From Chloroflexus sp. (lineage in GTDB: Bacteria > Chloroflexota > Chloroflexia > Chloroflexales > Chloroflexaceae): a stretch of DNA of 64,000 nucleotides. Shown one piece after another: positions 24,824-32,004 of this stretch (position 1 is the first letter of the stretch; every line of letters starts with the position of its first letter). Location of the stretch: positions 12,754 to 76,753 of the forward strand of contig JAINCM010000035.1 in NCBI GenBank assembly GCA_036574065.1, in the 5' to 3' direction. The position numbers were made by a program, and so were the translations under genes. The notes below the pieces were generated by a model. That model was not told the origin of the DNA and did no database searches. It saw only the letters and a list, made by a program, of their open reading frames with translations.

Positions 24824-25849
24824 TCAAACATCCGGTTCTTCGACAACCCACGATTGCACGCCGTGGGTAACGAACGAAAAGGGACGTACAACCACACCAG
24901 CTTCGGTGAGTGCGCGCTCGATGATTAGGCGCCGATCAAAAGGGCAGGCGAAGACCATAAACCCACCACCACCGGCACCTGATATCTTTCCACCCCACGC
25001 ACCATGCTTACGAGCGAGCGCATAGACCTCTTCAACAATCGGGGGAGCAATGTGGGGTGAGAAGGCTTTTTTAACCTCCCAGGCATCGTGCAAGAGCCGA
25101 CCAAAATCGGCAATTCGCTGTTCGCGCAGCAACCGAGCCGCCGTATCAACGAAGGCTTTCGTTTCGTGGTGCAGACGCAGGGTGTCACCCTTAACCAAGC
25201 GCTGCACCTGATCGGTCATGAGATGGCGCGTGAGCAATTGACGATCACCGATATAGCCCAGAATCAAGCAGCTCTCCAGTTCGAGCAAGGCGGTAGGATC
25301 GCTGAGCACCGGCTCAACAATAACGCGGTCACGCCCAAAGTGATACACACACATCCCACCGAAAACAGCCGAATATTGGTCTTGCCGCCCACCGGGGATC
25401 CCCAAATCTACGCGCTCGATTCGATACGCTAGTTCAGCGAGCTGATGCGGATCGGCATTTTGACCTGCCACCGCGTAGAGCAGCTTGAGCATACTAACGA
25501 CCAGTGCCGACGACGAGCCCAGGCCCGAACCAGGCGGAGCATCGCTAAACATGGTAATCTTGTAACCAGCTGTAGTTGGCCGTAGTTGAGGCAGGGCGTC
25601 GAGTACGGCTTGCGGCAATACCAGTTTGCCATCCCATTTGCGATCGCTCACCTGACGGCTGACTTCTTGCAAATCGAGCGAGCGGATAAGAATGCCCGGC
25701 GTGTTGCTAGTAGTGAGCATGCAGCGTACATACAGATTGATCGTGCAATTAAGGACTTTGCCGCCGTACTCTTCGGCATAGGGGCTGACATCGGTACCAC
25801 CGCCAAAAAAGCCAATTCGCATCGGCGCACGGGCTTTGTAAATTTTCAT
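24824..25849 (-). CDS. GHMP-family sugar kinase (D-glycero-D-manno-heptose-7-phosphate kinase-like)
   Basis: RAPMRIGFFGGGTD, PPGSGLGSSS, GGRQDQY, GGKISGAGGGGF. Confidence 0.87.
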   Translation of the reverse strand: MKIYKARAPMRIGFFGGGTDVSPYAEEYGGKVLNCTINLYVRCMLTTSNTPGILIRSLDLQEVSRQVSDRKWDGKLVLPQAVLDALPQLRPTTAGYKITMFSDAPPGSGLGSSSALVVSMLKLLYAVAGQNADPHQLAELAYRIERVDLGIPGGRQDQYSAVFGGMCVYHFGRDRVIVEPVLSDPTALLELESCLILGYIGDRQLLTRHLMTDQVQRLVKGDTLRLHHETKAFVDTAARLLREQRIADFGRLLHDAWEVKKAFSPHIAPPIVEEVYALARKHGAWGGKISGAGGGGFMVFACPFDRRLIIERALTEAGVVVRPFSFVTHGVQSWVVEEPDV

Positions 25850-25884
25850 GCATTCCTCCGGCCATTACTGAGTGCCGCGGCGCC

Positions 25885-25893
25885 AGTATACCA
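25885..25893 (-). promoter_or_regulatory. Extended -10 (TGgTATACT) for the GHMP kinase
   Basis: Reverse complement of AGTATACCA, about 35 nt upstream of the start. Confidence 0.45.
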
Positions 25894-25958
25894 GAAAATT
25901 AGGACCACACTCTTGCACGACTCAATCCGTATTGGTTGGATTCGCACCCTGACTACAG

Positions 25959-25964
25959 TACAAT
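25959..25964 (+). promoter_or_regulatory. -10 box TACAAT 6 nt before the ATG (leaderless configuration)
   Basis: cagTACAATatcattATG with no SD sequence upstream. Confidence 0.5.
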
Positions 25965-25970
25965 ATCATT

Positions 25971-27029
25971 ATGAAGATCTTTTACAGCGTCGATCACCAC
26001 TATCACAATCCACCATTCGAAATTCTTGACGGGCGGCAGACGCCATACTACGAGTCGCCGCGCCGGCTTGAGATCATTCTTGATGCCCTGACCGCTGCTG
26101 GCTTTGCGCCTCCGGTCGCGGCGACACCGGCAACGATGTCTGATCTGATAACAGTGCATACTGCCGACTATCTCGACTATCTCGTTTATGCTGTCGAGCG
26201 CTGGCAGGCTGCTGGGCTGACGGGTCCAGTGATGCCATCAGCCTGGCCGTTGCCTGGTCTGCGGTTACGCAGCGATTCGCCCCAGGCGGCAGCCGGACGC
26301 TATACCTTCGATCTTAGCGCGCCGATTGTGGCTGGTACAATGACGGCGGCGTTGTCATCGGCTGGCGCAGCGCTAGATGGGGCAAGAGCGCTACTGAGCG
26401 GTGAACGTTTCGCGTATGCCCTCTGTCGGCCGCCTGGTCACCACGCCGCCGCCAACATGGCTGGTGGTTATTGCTATCTCAACAACGCCGCGATTGCTGC
26501 CGACCGACTGGCACGTAGCGTGGCCGGTACGGATGCCACGTGGACGTTGCGCGCACCAGTGGTAGCGGTTCTCGATATCGATTATCACCATGGTAATGGC
26601 ACCCAGAGCATCTTTTACGAGCGCAATGATGTGCTGACTGTCTCACTGCACGCCGATCCGTCGCGTGAATACCCGTATTTCCTCGGCTACGCCGATGAGC
26701 GAGGAGCTGGCGCTGGTGAGGGTTACAATCTCAACCTTCCTCTCCCACCAGGCGTGATGGATCGCGACTATCTGACTACGCTCACTCATGCGCTGCAAGC
26801 AATCGCCGATTATAGCCCGCGCTATCTGGTAGTGGCGACTGGTTTTGACACCTTTTGCGCTGATCCTCTCGGTGATTTTGCCCTCACCACGAACGCCTAT
26901 CGCGCCATCGGTGCCGCTATTGCTCAGTTGGGGTTACCTACACTCTTTGTTCAAGAGGGCGGATATGCGCTGGACGCGCTAGGCACGAATGTCGTCACTT
27001 TATTACAGGGAGCACTCGCGTATGCTTAA
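25971..27029 (+). CDS. Histone-deacetylase-family amidohydrolase (acetylpolyamine amidohydrolase-like)
   Basis: RPPGHHA, GGYCYLNNAA, DIDYHHGNGTQ, GFDTFCADP, QEGGY. Confidence 0.92.
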   Translation: MKIFYSVDHHYHNPPFEILDGRQTPYYESPRRLEIILDALTAAGFAPPVAATPATMSDLITVHTADYLDYLVYAVERWQAAGLTGPVMPSAWPLPGLRLRSDSPQAAAGRYTFDLSAPIVAGTMTAALSSAGAALDGARALLSGERFAYALCRPPGHHAAANMAGGYCYLNNAAIAADRLARSVAGTDATWTLRAPVVAVLDIDYHHGNGTQSIFYERNDVLTVSLHADPSREYPYFLGYADERGAGAGEGYNLNLPLPPGVMDRDYLTTLTHALQAIADYSPRYLVVATGFDTFCADPLGDFALTTNAYRAIGAAIAQLGLPTLFVQEGGYALDALGTNVVTLLQGALAYA

Positions 27030-27768
27030 TCACTCGCTCGATCAGCCGCAAACACCGGCACCACTCACACCGACATGGGGCTGGCGTGATTTTATCATTA
27101 CCTTACTGGTCAGCGGTTTTGGCGGTGTGCTCGTTGTCGGCGCGGTGCGCGTCTTCGCTATGTTCGGCAATTGGGATACTTCACGGGGATTTATCAGTCC
27201 ACCGTTGTACATCGCAGGCGCATTGCTCTACCTCATCATCGGCGGTGCGATCCTCGTGATCATCGGTCCGCGCGCTGGCTGGCGCGATCTGGGCTTGCAA
27301 TGGCCGCATTGGATGTATCTAGCGTTGGTACCACCGGTGTTCATCTTTGGGATGGGTATGATGGTGTTGACTAACATCGGTGTGCGCGCGCTCTTGGGCG
27401 AGTTTGAAAATCCCCAGATCGAGAGTCTCTCTGGCGGACAACCTTTTGGGATCGTTGAACTGGTGGTGTTGTGGTTCCTGGTCGCCGGTATCGTCCCCCT
27501 GGTTGAAGAGCTGTTCTTCCGCGGCGCGCTCCATCATCTGCTACGCCGCCATTTTAACAGTACGTTGACGATCGTAATTGGCGCCGCAATCTTTGCAGTT
27601 GTGCACTTTATTCCCATATTGATCCCCGGGCTATTTGTCGCCGGCCTGTGTCTAGGCTATCTGCGTGAACAGAGCGGCTCGATCTGGCCGGGCGTGATCT
27701 TCCATGGGCTGCAAAACACGCTAGCGTTACTGGCAATGGCGTTGGTCTTGACCACCGGCGGCGTGTAG
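27022..27768 (+). CDS. CPBP/CAAX (Abi) intramembrane metalloprotease
   Basis: PLVEELFFRG, FAVVH, SIWPGVIFHGLQN. Overlaps the upstream stop. Confidence 0.9.
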   Translation: MLNHSLDQPQTPAPLTPTWGWRDFIITLLVSGFGGVLVVGAVRVFAMFGNWDTSRGFISPPLYIAGALLYLIIGGAILVIIGPRAGWRDLGLQWPHWMYLALVPPVFIFGMGMMVLTNIGVRALLGEFENPQIESLSGGQPFGIVELVVLWFLVAGIVPLVEELFFRGALHHLLRRHFNSTLTIVIGAAIFAVVHFIPILIPGLFVAGLCLGYLREQSGSIWPGVIFHGLQNTLALLAMALVLTTGGV

Positions 27769-27896
27769 TCAGCTGATCTGCAGCGTTTGGTCTTCACCAA
27801 ACATTTGCTTACAGTAGTGAATTCTTCTCTGCCCAACCGTTGCCGGCTGTACTATACTGCCATTGCCTTCAGAACCAACAGTAATGAGGTGAGGCA

Positions 27897-29441
27897 GTGG
27901 AAACCCCCGAAGCACAACTCGACACCCTGCGCCGGTTGCGTGAGCGCGCGTTGCAGGGCGGTGGGCAGGAACGGATTGCTCAACAGCATGCACGTGGTAA
28001 GCTGACAGCACGCGAACGGCTAGCATTACTGCTCGACCCCGGATCGTTTCAAGAGATCGGCGCCCTAGCAACCAGTATCACCGACGATGAAGAACAGCGC
28101 ATTCCTGGTGATGGCGCGGTCACTGGCTTTGGCAAGATCAACGGGCGTCGAGTTGCAGTCTTTGCCCAGGATTTTACCGTCATGGGCGGCTCGTTTTCAG
28201 CGGTACAGGCCAACAAGATCTGTCGTATGCAAGACCTCGCCCTTGAGAGTGGCATTCCGATCATCGGTCTGAATGACTCGGGCGGCGCGCGCATCCAAGA
28301 AGGGGTGCGCTCGCTCGCAGCTTATGGAGAGGTCTTTGTCCGCAATGTACTAGCGTCGGGTGTTGTGCCCCAAATCTCCGCTATTCTCGGCCCCTGCGCC
28401 GGCGGTGCAGTCTATTCACCGGCCTTGACCGATTTTGTCATTATGTCAGAGTCGACCGGCTACATGTTCCTGACCGGTCCTGACGTAATCAAGACCGTCT
28501 CAGGACGCGACATCTCGGTTCAGGAACTCGGCGGGGCAGCTGTGCACTGCGCCCGCAGCGGGGTGGCCCATCTTTCCGCCCCTGACGATCAGGCAGTGAT
28601 TGAACTGATCAAGCGGCTACTCAGCTACCTGCCGCAGAACAATACCGAAGATCCGCCGCAAATTATGCCCTACGACCGCGCCGATCGGCAAGAGCCAGCC
28701 CTCAACTCGTTGGTGCCAGCGGATGAGCGGCAGGGTTACGACATTCACATGCTGATCGATTTGGTCTTCGATCACGATAGTTTTCTCGAGATTCAACCGC
28801 TCTTCGCCCAAAATGCGGTGGTCGGTTTTGCCCGCCTCGATGGCTACGCCGTTGGCGTGGTTGCTAATCAGCCGGCAATTATGGCGGGCGCGCTTGATAT
28901 CGATGCTAGCGACAAGATCGCGCGCTTTGTGCGCATTTGTGATGCATTCAACATCCCGGTCATCACTTTTGTCGATACACCAGGATTTCTCCCCGGCGTA
29001 GAGCAAGAGTACGGTGGGGTCATACGCCACGGCGCAAAGATCATTTACGCCTACAGCGAAGCTACTGTGCCCAAGATCTCTGTCGTGTTGCGGAAGGCAA
29101 TCGGCGGGGCTTACGTTGCCATGTCAAGTAAACAACTGCGCTGTGACCTCAATTTTGCTTGGCCGTCGGCCCAGATCGCAGTCATGGGGGCCGAAGGCGC
29201 TGTCCGCATCTTGTACCGTGACGAGCTGCGCGCCGCTGCCGATCCGCGTAAGCTGATGGAGGAGTTTGTCGCTGAGTACCGGCGTAAGTTTTTCAACCCG
29301 TATCACGCCGCCGACCTCGGCCAGATCGATGAGGTTATCGAGCCAGCAGAGACGCGGCCACGCCTCATTCGCGCGCTGGAAATTCTGCGTACCAAGGTGC
29401 AGCAGAATCCGCCGCGCAAGCATGGTCTGTATCCATCGTGA
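27897..29441 (+). CDS. mmdA: Acyl-CoA carboxyltransferase (methylmalonyl-CoA decarboxylase alpha / PccB-like)
   Basis: GKLTARER, QDFTVMGGS, DSGGARIQEG, GPCAGGAVYSPALTDF, VDTPGFLPG, KHGLYP. GAGGTGAGG RBS and a TATACT box at 27853. Confidence 0.85.
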   Translation: METPEAQLDTLRRLRERALQGGGQERIAQQHARGKLTARERLALLLDPGSFQEIGALATSITDDEEQRIPGDGAVTGFGKINGRRVAVFAQDFTVMGGSFSAVQANKICRMQDLALESGIPIIGLNDSGGARIQEGVRSLAAYGEVFVRNVLASGVVPQISAILGPCAGGAVYSPALTDFVIMSESTGYMFLTGPDVIKTVSGRDISVQELGGAAVHCARSGVAHLSAPDDQAVIELIKRLLSYLPQNNTEDPPQIMPYDRADRQEPALNSLVPADERQGYDIHMLIDLVFDHDSFLEIQPLFAQNAVVGFARLDGYAVGVVANQPAIMAGALDIDASDKIARFVRICDAFNIPVITFVDTPGFLPGVEQEYGGVIRHGAKIIYAYSEATVPKISVVLRKAIGGAYVAMSSKQLRCDLNFAWPSAQIAVMGAEGAVRILYRDELRAAADPRKLMEEFVAEYRRKFFNPYHAADLGQIDEVIEPAETRPRLIRALEILRTKVQQNPPRKHGLYPS

Positions 29442-29464
29442 GGCCCGTGGAGCAAGGAGTCGTA

Positions 29465-29818
29465 ATGGAAAATCTTGGTTTTGGCTTAACTATGACCGTA
29501 CTCGGTATGGGCTTAGTGTTCGGCGTGCTGGCACTGCTCTGGGGTATTCTCTCTGCCCTAACCTATGTTGACCAGCCACCAGCGTCGACACCGAGCGCAA
29601 TTGCGCCGGTAACGGTGAGCGAGCCAGTTGCGCATGAACAACTGACACCAGAAGAGCTGGCAGCAATTGCGGTTGCCGTCGCTGTGCATACGACAGTACT
29701 CCGACGCGAAGCTGCACCAGCGGTGCGTAGTTACTGGCCGGGTAGCCTGTTGTTTGCTAGTCGTTGGGTCGCCGCTGGTCGCGCGCGCCAAAACCAGAGC
29801 TGGCAACGAAGGAGATAA
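29465..29818 (+). CDS. mmdD: OadG/MmdD-type delta (gamma) membrane subunit
   Basis: AAGGAG then ATG 29465. Single TM TVLGMGLVFGVLALL, Pro/Ala linker, ELAAIAVAV, and a C-terminal SRWVAAGR motif. Confidence 0.8.
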   Translation: MENLGFGLTMTVLGMGLVFGVLALLWGILSALTYVDQPPASTPSAIAPVTVSEPVAHEQLTPEELAAIAVAVAVHTTVLRREAAPAVRSYWPGSLLFASRWVAAGRARQNQSWQRRR

Positions 29819-29825
29819 CACAGCG

Positions 29826-30290
29826 ATGCGTCGCTATCACCTGACGATCAACGGCCAGACGTACACAGTCGATATCGCCGAACTGAGCAATGACCGCTTT
29901 GTCGTACAACTGAACGGTCGCGAGTTTGAAGTGCAGCTGAGCGAGGGTGGCGAAGTGGGCGAGATTGTTCCACGCACCGCGCCCGTTGTCGCGCCTGCCC
30001 TTCCCGCGAGCGCTCCTGCGTCGCCACCACCACCAGCAGTGACATCTTTGCCGCCCGCGACCACGGTGGGCGACAATCTGATCCGGGCACCGATGCCGGG
30101 AACCATCCTGCAAATAGTTGCCCAACCTGGGACCCGGGTGAAGCGTGGGCAGCCGATCATTGTGCTCGAAGCAATGAAAATGAATAACAGCATCGGCGCC
30201 CCCCGTGATGGCGTCGTCACAGCCATTCTGGTCAAAACTGGTCAGAGCGTGGGCTACGGCGAACCGCTGGCCCAACTCGCCGACGCCTGA
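29826..30290 (+). CDS. mmdC: Biotin carboxyl carrier subunit
   Basis: GGAG then ATG 29826. Y..TINGQTYTVDI, Pro/Ala linker, APMPGTI, biotinylation motif EAMKM. Confidence 0.9.
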   Translation: MRRYHLTINGQTYTVDIAELSNDRFVVQLNGREFEVQLSEGGEVGEIVPRTAPVVAPALPASAPASPPPPAVTSLPPATTVGDNLIRAPMPGTILQIVAQPGTRVKRGQPIIVLEAMKMNNSIGAPRDGVVTAILVKTGQSVGYGEPLAQLADA

Positions 30291-30370
30291 AGTGGCCAGG
30301 AAGGGGTATCGTTAGCAGCACCAACGCCAGTTTACTAGAATCTGCCACCAACATCTACAGGCTTTAAGCT

Positions 30371-31489
30371 ATGGATGATATTGCCTTTCGGCTGTTACAG
30401 GGGATCACGTCGATCACGTGGCAATCGCTGGTCATGATCGGGGTCGCTACGCTCTTGTTCTACCTTGCGATCGTCCACGACTACGAGCCATTGCTCCTCT
30501 TACCGATCGGTGCCGGGGCGTTGCTGGCAAATCTGCCGCTGTCTCCCCTGCTTGGCGAAGACGGAATGTTTACTATTCTCTACAATGCTGGGGTCGGTAA
30601 CGAACTCTTTCCCCTGTTGATATTCATCGGTATCGGTGCGCTTACCGATTTCAGTCCTTTGCTTTCCAACCCGCGGATGGTCTTGCTCGGTGCTGCCGGT
30701 CAATTTGGCATCTTCGGCACTTTGCTGGCGGCGCTAGCCCTTGGCTTTAGCCGCGAAGAAGCAGCTTCTATCGGGATTATCGGCGCGATCGACGGTCCTA
30801 CTTCGATCTACGTATCGAGCCTGCTCGCCCCCCAACTGCTCGGCCCGATCACAGTGGCAGCGTATAGCTATATGTCGCTGGTACCAGTCATTATGCCGCC
30901 GGTGATCCGCGCACTGACCACACCCGCCGAACGGCGGATCCGTATGGCTTACGTCAGCCGCCCGATCAGTCGCCGCACGCGCATTCTGTTCCCCATCGTG
31001 ACTACCATTGTGGTGGGCATACTGGTACCGTTTGCTATCCCGCTGATCGGTATGCTGATGTTAGGCAATCTGATGCGGGAGTCGGGAGTGGTGGAGCGCT
31101 TGACCAACACCTCTTCTCGGGAACTGGCTAACATCGTCACGCTCTTTTTAGGGCTGGCGATTGGCTCAACGATGGAAGGCGTCCGCTTCCTCCAACCGGC
31201 TACGCTGGCCATTCTCGCCTTAGGCATTCTGGCCTTCGTCCTTGACACTGCCGCTGGCCTGATCTTTGGTAAATTCCTCAATCTGCTCAGTCGCGGCAAC
31301 TTCAACCCGATCATCGGCGCTGCCGGCATCAGCGCCTTCCCCATGGCAGCGCGGGTGGTGCAAAAGATCGCGCACGAAGAAGACTTCGAGAACTTCCTGC
31401 TGATGCATGCAATGGGCGCTAATGCCGCCGGACAGGTCGCGAGCGTGGTAGCAGGCGGAGTCGTGCTGGCCCTGATGGGAGCGTCGTAG
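30371..31489 (+). CDS. mmdB: Na+-translocating decarboxylase beta subunit (OadB/MmdB)
   Basis: YEPLLLLPIG, ELFPLLIFIGIGALTDF, GIIGAIDGPTSIY, AAYSYMSLVP, GISAFPMAARV, AMGANAAG. Confidence 0.93.
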   Translation: MDDIAFRLLQGITSITWQSLVMIGVATLLFYLAIVHDYEPLLLLPIGAGALLANLPLSPLLGEDGMFTILYNAGVGNELFPLLIFIGIGALTDFSPLLSNPRMVLLGAAGQFGIFGTLLAALALGFSREEAASIGIIGAIDGPTSIYVSSLLAPQLLGPITVAAYSYMSLVPVIMPPVIRALTTPAERRIRMAYVSRPISRRTRILFPIVTTIVVGILVPFAIPLIGMLMLGNLMRESGVVERLTNTSSRELANIVTLFLGLAIGSTMEGVRFLQPATLAILALGILAFVLDTAAGLIFGKFLNLLSRGNFNPIIGAAGISAFPMAARVVQKIAHEEDFENFLLMHAMGANAAGQVASVVAGGVVLALMGAS

Positions 31490-31545
31490 GTGTGTCACCG
31501 GATTGGCGACTGTAACCGACGGCGTACAATGAAAGAGAGAAACGC

Positions 31546-32004
31546 ATGATGGCAGAGGAGCGTTCTATGTCAAAGACTGAGCGTGTCGCAGAATGGATGA
31601 CGGAGAATCCGATTTGTGTATCGCCCGATTTCTCGGTGCTGGCGGCTTACGAGCGTATGCGCGCGCGCGGAGTACGACGGATGCCGGTCGTGGATAAACA
31701 AGGCAATCTGGTGGGTATTATTACCAAGAGCGACATCGAGCAAGCGATGAGTCACCCGCGCGATGATGAAGAGCGACGTTTGGCGCGCTTCAATCTGGCC
31801 GGACAGACTGTGGCTGAACTTATGACGCCCAACCCTTTGACAGTTTCCTCGAGCGACTCGATCGGCAAAGCGGCGGCCGTTATGGTGCGCGCGCGGGTCA
31901 GTGGTCTGCCCGTGGTAGACGATGGTCGGTTGGTCGGCATCATTACCGAATCGGATATTTTCCGACTGGTAGCCAGCACGTGGGCAGCGGAAGAGAACGA
32001 CTAG
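31546..32004 (+). CDS. CBS-pair domain protein (AcuB-like)
   Basis: MPVVDKQGNLVGIIT and LPVVDDGRLVGIITESD. TACAAT box at 31525. Confidence 0.88.
   Translation: MMAEERSMSKTERVAEWMTENPICVSPDFSVLAAYERMRARGVRRMPVVDKQGNLVGIITKSDIEQAMSHPRDDEERRLARFNLAGQTVAELMTPNPLTVSSSDSIGKAAAVMVRARVSGLPVVDDGRLVGIITESDIFRLVASTWAAEEND

Follow-up and report, generated by a model that had tools for sequence, protein, structure and literature searches.

The reference operons for the Na+-translocating methylmalonyl-CoA decarboxylase (Mmd, EC 7.2.4.3) are mmdADCB of Propionigenium modestum and mmdADECB of Veillonella parvula. Related systems are the oxaloacetate decarboxylase OadGAB of Klebsiella, Vibrio and Salmonella (PDB 6iva/6iww) and the glutaconyl-CoA decarboxylase GcdABCD of Acidaminococcus and Clostridium. 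We analyzed a 64-kb stretch of Chloroflexus DNA, here termed the window (G000:C34:12754-76753, from an assembly of 4.1 Mb in 40 contigs), and an operon of four genes within it that encode an alpha subunit, a membrane anchor, a biotin carrier and a beta subunit. These genes probably specify a membrane-bound, biotin-dependent decarboxylase of the Mmd type, which would convert methylmalonyl-CoA to propionyl-CoA and export Na+ in dark anoxia. Like the enzymes of P. modestum and V. parvula it combines a carboxyltransferase of the PccB class with a small anchor, a beta pump of about 372 residues and a free carrier that contains an Ala/Pro linker, and it shares with them the gene order and the lack of a biotin carboxylase. 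The design of four separate subunits is also that of GcdABCD. The Chloroflexus operon differs from the Mmd operons in having no epsilon subunit, and the organism differs from the Mmd hosts in carrying a second, paralogous operon and in its lifestyle: it is an anoxygenic phototroph, facultatively aerobic and equipped with the 3-hydroxypropionate bi-cycle, rather than a strict fermenter.

A preliminary description of the window had placed four genes at 27897-31489 in the order A-D-C-B, with no biotin carboxylase. All four open reading frames (ORFs) were found intact on the + strand at these coordinates with the corresponding family matches (Table 1), their order is as described, and no biotin carboxylase domain was found anywhere within the 64 kb. 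The genes are separated by 23, 7 and 80 nucleotides. The alpha gene starts with GTG at position 27897 and is preceded by a good ribosome-binding site (GAGGTGAGG). The CAAX-protease-like gene upstream is immediately followed by a terminator-like hairpin, which suggests a separate transcript of the decarboxylase genes that begins in the 128-nucleotide gap. Recent transfer of the operon was considered and rejected, since the GC content around it shows no anomaly.

The anchor ORF has a possible alternative GTG start at position 29438 and a single hydrophobic segment (residues 4-37). Its match to PF04277 lies above the cut-off of 27 bits, while it scored 28 bits against the NCBIfam subfamily model TIGR01195 and thereby stayed below the cut-off of 36. 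It is 63% identical to its orthologue in C. aurantiacus. The carrier consists of a short N-terminal domain followed by an Ala/Pro-rich linker and a biotinyl domain. Its EAMKM motif, read from the translation, occupies residues 115-119, with K118 as the biotinyl lysine.

The beta subunit scored 496 bits against PF03977 OAD_beta (cut-off 31.6) and 459 bits against TIGR01109 (cut-off 190.6), and it is homologous to Salmonella OadB (PDB 6iva; 362 bits), from which it differs by lacking an N-terminal insert of about 60 residues. Residues D141, Y167, N312, G316, S321 and R328 align with D203, Y229, N373, G377, S382 and R389 of OadB and are identical at all six positions. In mutagenesis of the Klebsiella enzyme, these OadB residues are reported to be needed for Na+ binding and decarboxylation. 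The paralogous beta subunit of the second operon keeps the same six. The likeness to OadGAB extends to the anchor, which belongs to the OadG family, but not to alpha, which is not of the OadA type with a fused carrier and for which a CoA ester substrate is expected. Judged by its beta subunit, the six pump residues, the anchor and a carrier that comes without a biotin carboxylase, the complex would be a member of the Na+-transporting carboxylic acid decarboxylases (NaT-DC, TC 3.B.1).

Among solved structures, alpha was found to match that of Thermotoga maritima best (1vrg, 655 bits), followed by PccB proteins at about 610 bits, including that of Streptomyces coelicolor, and by the 12S transcarboxylase subunit at 578 bits. 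Structures of the PccB class scored 565-655 bits in all, whereas the GcdA subunit of glutaconyl-CoA decarboxylase reached 109-119 bits and is only a remote relative (119 versus 655 bits at best). Because alpha scores high with the PccB class and low with GcdA, it falls in the class that handles methylmalonyl-CoA and propionyl-CoA, and not with Gcd or Oad. The complex was therefore rejected as a glutaconyl-CoA decarboxylase, and as an oxaloacetate decarboxylase, on the class of its alpha subunit.

A phylogeny of alpha had been proposed as a check in the preliminary description. In a quick maximum-likelihood tree of 46 carboxyltransferases, with support from the Shimodaira-Hasegawa-like approximate likelihood ratio test (SH-aLRT), alpha was placed in a clade of 17 members with a support of 100, apart from the PccB proteins of S. 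coelicolor and Ruegeria pomeroyi. Every member of this clade adjoins a gene of the OadB type, and its taxa comprise Chloroflexota, Thermoanaerobaculia, Propionibacteriaceae, NC10 and Betaproteobacteria. The position of D422 in S. coelicolor PccB is taken by Val, Ile or Leu in all 35 decarboxylase-linked alpha subunits, with Val in the window alpha, Val or Ile across its clade and invariably Leu in the clade of the second operon. Asp is found in S. coelicolor PccB, in a stand-alone carboxyltransferase on contig C2 of the Chloroflexus genome and in two carboxylase-linked beta subunits, but the propionyl-CoA carboxylase (PCC) beta of R. pomeroyi has Val. The position thus separates clades but gives no reliable rule, and it was rejected as a marker of the substrate.

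A rival reading, assumed in the genome paper on C. aurantiacus, is that alpha is, or is also, the carboxyltransferase of the ATP-dependent PCC of the bi-cycle, acting with a soluble biotin carboxylase. Orthologues in public records are named propionyl-CoA carboxylase or acyl-CoA carboxylase subunit beta, and a published pccB list for C. aurantiacus includes Caur_3435, the alpha orthologue by position and gene count (Tang et al., 2011; PMC3150298). Alpha resembles S. coelicolor PccB and the PCC beta of the Chloroflexus bi-cycle in sequence (about 55-60% identity), fold class and CoA ester pair, and differs from them in its linkage to pump genes, its separate clade and the Val at the D422 position. 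An anchor, a carrier of its own and a pump gene trail alpha on the same strand with short gaps, in an order kept across phyla, while no biotin carboxylase lies next to it in the window. Moreover, it is the paralogue on C2 that groups with the bona fide S. coelicolor PccB (SH-aLRT 96) and has the Asp of PccB. This stand-alone protein is 60% identical to the alpha subunits of both operons, scores highest among solved structures with S. coelicolor PccB (733 bits) and appears to be a better candidate than the window alpha for the carboxyltransferase of the bi-cycle. An MccB-like carboxyltransferase (817 bits to the methylcrotonyl-CoA carboxylase beta of Pseudomonas aeruginosa) and an AccA/AccD-like sequence were found on C11. 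Three biotin carboxylases, one free (455 residues) and two fused to a carrier (596 and 654 residues), are encoded on contigs C40, C19 and C39, whereas the window belongs to C34. With three biotin carboxylases, AccA/D and two stand-alone carboxyltransferases elsewhere, the soluble carboxylases could be assembled without the alpha of either operon. A point in favor of alpha as a carboxylase subunit is that the stand-alone PccB-type gene is frameshifted in the genome taken as C. aggregans, although this may be a sequencing error. Altogether, we regard a role of alpha in the PCC as highly improbable.

The assignment of pccB genes in C. aurantiacus was followed in a finished single-contig genome of the genus (G062), which we take to be that of strain J-10-fl; the mappings to Caur_ numbers are based on ORF counting and interpolation and not on locus tags from a record. 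G062 encodes a biotin carboxylase of 455 residues that matches BC2, which is Caur_3421 (Met1-Val455; Shen et al., 2024; PMC11077971). Counting ORFs from Caur_3421, the beta, carrier, anchor and alpha genes become Caur_3432-3435. The C. aurantiacus genome paper gives Caur_2034 and Caur_3435 as pccB (Tang et al., 2011). By this gene count Caur_3435, listed there as a CO2-fixing carboxylase, would be the orthologue of the window alpha. Caur_2034 looks like a gene of 535 codons of the MccB type (methylcrotonyl-CoA carboxylase), based on interpolated position, length and accession arithmetic. When the 535-residue protein ABY35246.1 was used in E. coli as the C. aurantiacus PCC beta, it showed no activity, with 0.2 mg/L of product compared to 0.5 mg/L in the control without PCC (PMC5509990). 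The PccB-like gene at 3.20 Mb in G062 encodes Asp at the D422 position and is absent from the list of Tang et al. This matters for engineering of the bi-cycle, for which the stand-alone PccB-like gene is the better candidate. In a second finished genome (G061), which is presumably that of C. aggregans, the stand-alone PccB-type gene was found to be frameshifted near codon 313, where AWAKK stands in place of AWAQN. Either the sequence is in error here, or the best candidate for the carboxyltransferase of the bi-cycle has truly been lost.

The second complete alpha-anchor-carrier-beta operon of the host genome lies on another contig and had been missed in the preliminary description. Its alpha and beta subunits are 56 and 49% identical to those of the window operon, and its biotin carrier has 143 residues. 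The operon has a hybrid histidine kinase/GGDEF pair on one side and regulatory genes on the other, and the genes of the F-type ATP synthase lie about 6 kb away. In J-10-fl its counterpart is located near 4.10 Mb. Its alpha belongs to a separate clade (SH-aLRT 100), whose 13 members come from the same family, each with a linked gene of the OadB type. The two operons could be specialized for different CoA esters, for example methylmalonyl-CoA versus malonyl-CoA or another carboxy-acyl-CoA, in which case the window copy would not be the methylmalonyl-CoA enzyme. Retention of both divergent operons in 16 of 16 genomes of the genus speaks for this, as do the separate and well-supported clades of the two alpha subunits and the Val or Ile versus invariant Leu at the D422 position; the Mmd of V. 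parvula also accepts malonyl-CoA. Against it, both alpha subunits score alike with structures that handle methylmalonyl-CoA and propionyl-CoA, the cassette of the window type is the one shared with propionate-forming Propionibacteriaceae, and no sequence rule separates malonyl-CoA from methylmalonyl-CoA specificity. We consider it unlikely that the window copy acts on another ester, and methylmalonyl-CoA is kept as its predicted substrate.

The distribution of the operon was assessed by a scan of species genomes for the beta subunit, which gave 575 relatives, and the neighborhoods of the best 80 were compared. Among these 80, loci from other phyla were found at 73-80% identity. The cassette of alpha, anchor, carrier and pump genes, with 65-80% identity, is present in Propionibacteriaceae, Acidobacteriota, NC10, Betaproteobacteria and many Chloroflexota. 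The order A-D-C-B was kept in nearly all related loci for which upstream DNA was captured, from at least five phyla. When the neighbors in the 80 loci were clustered, no further gene recurred as a partner of these four, and apparent large clusters were antisense shadow ORFs. The cassette is therefore not a rarity, and its kind is common and already annotated. Both operon types were observed in all 16 sampled genomes of the genus, including the finished C. aurantiacus (J-10-fl) genome, and the window type was intact in 15 of them. In the remaining genome the window-type beta gene was matched in three separate pieces, which may represent a pseudogene or an assembly error. In the family of the host, 45 of 61 sampled genomes had at least one beta gene; the second-operon type is widespread in the family, while the window type occurs in five genera.

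The host is Chloroflexus, as the preliminary description had surmised from its genome. The closest named relatives of alpha are from Chloroflexus islandicus and Chloroflexus sp. Y-396-1 (93-94% identity), and the genome encodes a malonyl-CoA reductase homologue of 1219 residues that is 87-92% identical to its counterparts in the same genus. It also contains an ORF of 1823 codons that has the size of a propionyl-CoA synthase gene.

We cross-tabulated the beta gene and malonyl-CoA reductase in the same 61 genomes of the family. The beta gene was present in 37 and absent from 9 of the 46 genomes with the reductase, and present in 8 and absent from 7 of the 15 genomes without it. The association between the two is weak (p = 0.05 in a Fisher test that does not correct for relatedness). 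In one genus the decarboxylase occurs in 6/6 genomes and the reductase in 0/6. As the beta gene occurs without the reductase in 8/15 genomes and is missing from 9/46 with it, the decarboxylase is neither required for the bi-cycle nor sufficient for it. This, and the occurrence of the cassette in many heterotrophs, speaks against a role dedicated to CO2 fixation, and the complex does not belong to the bi-cycle. In a genus of the family other than Chloroflexus, an operon of the second type and malonyl-CoA reductase were found on one contig at a distance of 16-18 kb.

Alternatively, the complex could run in reverse in the light, with a Na+ gradient driving ATP-free carboxylation of propionyl-CoA or acetyl-CoA and thereby feeding the bi-cycle. 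Oad and Mmd were reversed by a Na+ gradient in vitro (Dimroth and Hilpert, 1984, as cited in PMC10880623). Chloroflexus has the bi-cycle, and it has a marker of the Mrp antiporter that could turn a light-driven proton gradient into a Na+ gradient. However, heterotrophs that lack the bi-cycle commonly have the cassette, the association with the reductase is not convincing given the mismatches in both directions, and the parts of an ATP-dependent carboxylase are all present. Reversal in the light is therefore very doubtful. The proposal of the preliminary description that the operon adds a branch to the CO2-fixation pathway, or an ATP-independent carboxylase for it, found no support, since many phyla that lack the bi-cycle have the cassette, 8/15 and 9/46 genomes are mismatched and a separate PccB-type gene exists for the carboxylation.

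Table 1. Coordinates of the operon in the window and of other loci. Positions without a prefix are those of the window; others are given as genome, contig and position.
Feature	Length (residues)	Position	Strand	Match or remark
Alpha subunit, PccB/MmdA/12S-class carboxyltransferase	514	27897..29441	+	PF01039 Carboxyl_trans 629 bits, full-length
Delta/gamma subunit, OadG-type single-helix membrane anchor	117	29465..29818	+	PF04277 OAD_gamma 49.6 bits
Biotin carrier, MmdC-like	154	29826..30290	+	PF00364 71.9 bits; EAMKM
Codon of biotinyl lysine K118		30177-30179
Beta subunit, OadB/MmdB-type integral membrane carboxybiotin decarboxylase and Na+ pump (by homology)	372	30371..31489	+	PF03977, TIGR01109
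Terminator-like hairpin		27785..27802	+	consensus scan only
Genes upstream of the operon		24824-27768		divergent GHMP-kinase gene, histone-deacetylase-family gene, CAAX-protease-like gene
Gene downstream of the operon	152	31546-32004		tandem-CBS protein
Second operon of the host genome		G000:C39:541694-545335 (L003:8692-12336)	-	alpha-anchor-carrier-beta
F-type ATP synthase c subunit of the host genome	76	C39 (L003:2332-2562)	-
Window-type beta gene in three pieces		G069:C6:157886-158998
Examples of malonyl-CoA reductase and second-type operon on one contig		G004:C63:344287-347940 and 364365-365468; G033:C163:8343-11996 and 30433-31536
Decarboxylase operon, presumed Caur_2034 and PccB-like gene (in this order)		G062:C1:4596904-4600431; 2784146-2785582; 3203233-3204693
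Biotin carboxylase matching BC2	455	G062:4,583,880-4,585,247
Frameshifted stand-alone PccB-type gene		G061:C1:3687000-3691000 (L092, frameshift at about 1917-1954 in locus)

The GHMP-kinase and CAAX-protease-like genes upstream of the operon have counterparts of matching size and position in C. aurantiacus, with a longer ORF between them. The tandem-CBS gene downstream of the operon is not kept at that spot in C. aurantiacus.

The substrate, the ion, the direction and the timing of the reaction are predicted here from homology. The alpha subunit would transfer the carboxyl group of (S)-methylmalonyl-CoA, and probably that of malonyl-CoA too, to the biotin of the small carrier, the anchor would keep alpha and carrier at the membrane, and beta would decarboxylate carboxybiotin and use the energy for Na+ export. 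The decarboxylating direction is most likely when neither light nor oxygen is available, and methylmalonyl-CoA derived from succinyl-CoA would then yield propionyl-CoA and from it propionate or 3-hydroxyvalerate storage units. Three matches to methylmalonyl-CoA mutase were found in the genome, together with a weak PhaC-like match and an ADP-forming acyl-CoA-synthetase-like gene, and a route from succinyl-CoA via methylmalonyl-CoA and propionyl-CoA to propionate (plus ATP) or 3-hydroxyvalerate is thus encoded in outline. Energy conservation in the dark or under anoxia, as put forward in the preliminary description, is plausible in view of the mutase and synthetase-like genes, an Mrp antiporter marker and the nightly accumulation of propionate and 3-hydroxyvalerate units in hot-spring mats (PMC4400912). 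The identification of a complete Na+-translocating decarboxylase of the Mmd type in that description agrees with every sequence comparison that was run.

The complex would be a primary Na+ pump whose gradient is used by Na+/H+ antiport or Na+-coupled transport and not by the ATP synthase. A search for Mrp antiporters had been recommended together with the phylogeny, and the marker gene MnhG was found in the genome. The genome encodes a single F-type c subunit, a few kb from the second operon, which reads GPGVGIG...FTEALAIF. Aligned with the sequence of Ilyobacter tartaricus, it has I for Q32, A for S66, L for T67 and F for Y70. In contrast to that of P. modestum, the ATP synthase of Chloroflexus looks H+-coupled, and Na+-coupled ATP synthesis was rejected because the sole c subunit has a proton-type site. 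A proton-type c subunit would imply that the Na+ gradient of the decarboxylase feeds antiport, pH homeostasis or Na+-coupled uptake and not ATP synthesis directly. The c subunit is nearly identical to a chain in 18 solved entries (PDB 9itj and others), and a structure thus seems to exist.

Several results weigh against an Mmd with this role. Alpha scored 738.2 bits against the NCBIfam subfamily model TIGR01117 for mmdA and missed the cut-off of 998.8, as did the alpha of the second operon (776 bits), and the carrier scored 90.3 bits against the equivalog model NF047903 for MmdC, with a cut-off of 200. As the curated models for MmdA and MmdC were both missed, we refer to the complex as Mmd-type and not as a proven Mmd. 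The conservation of two paralogous operons implies that at least one of them may act on another substrate or in another role. Neither in the window nor in the 80 related loci was a pathway gene, such as one for a mutase or an epimerase, found linked to the cassette, and the substrate is predicted from the class of alpha. In a mat from Yellowstone, acetate and propionate were highest at midnight, and the polyhydroxyalkanoate, which is higher at night, contains threefold more 3-hydroxyvalerate than 3-hydroxybutyrate (PMC4400912). These data fit the proposed role, but they come from communities dominated by Roseiflexus and are not linked to the operon genes. No row in the supplements of a diel metatranscriptome of C. 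aggregans (PMC8004040) names a decarboxylase, a carboxyl transferase or a propionyl- or methylmalonyl-CoA enzyme, and the main text of a C. aurantiacus time-course proteome (PMC9316378) gives no tags for the operon genes. A literature search gave no biochemical, transcript or protein evidence for the operon in any Chloroflexus, and no paper that meaningfully joins Chloroflexus with a methylmalonyl-CoA, oxaloacetate or sodium-translocating decarboxylase.

The enzyme type is a textbook one and the cassette is widespread, so that the gain lies in physiological detail and not in a new mechanism. Only modestly new are the presence of the complex in Chloroflexus, which is undiscussed in the literature searched, the counting of its alpha as a carboxylase of the bi-cycle, and the pairing of the operons. 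The finding nevertheless offers a testable route for the formation of propionate and 3-hydroxyvalerate at night by the filamentous phototrophs of mats, and a Na+ pump that needs neither light nor oxygen. A more far-reaching possibility, which we put forward tentatively, is that Chloroflexus keeps two Na+-pumping decarboxylases to reverse carboxylations of the bi-cycle at night, from methylmalonyl-CoA to propionyl-CoA and perhaps from malonyl-CoA to acetyl-CoA. If true, this would turn part of the bi-cycle into a fermentation route that conserves energy, propionate and 3-hydroxyvalerate units appearing at night in hot-spring mats would be explained, and Chloroflexus would possess a primary Na+ pump that does not depend on light and serves it at alkaline pH.

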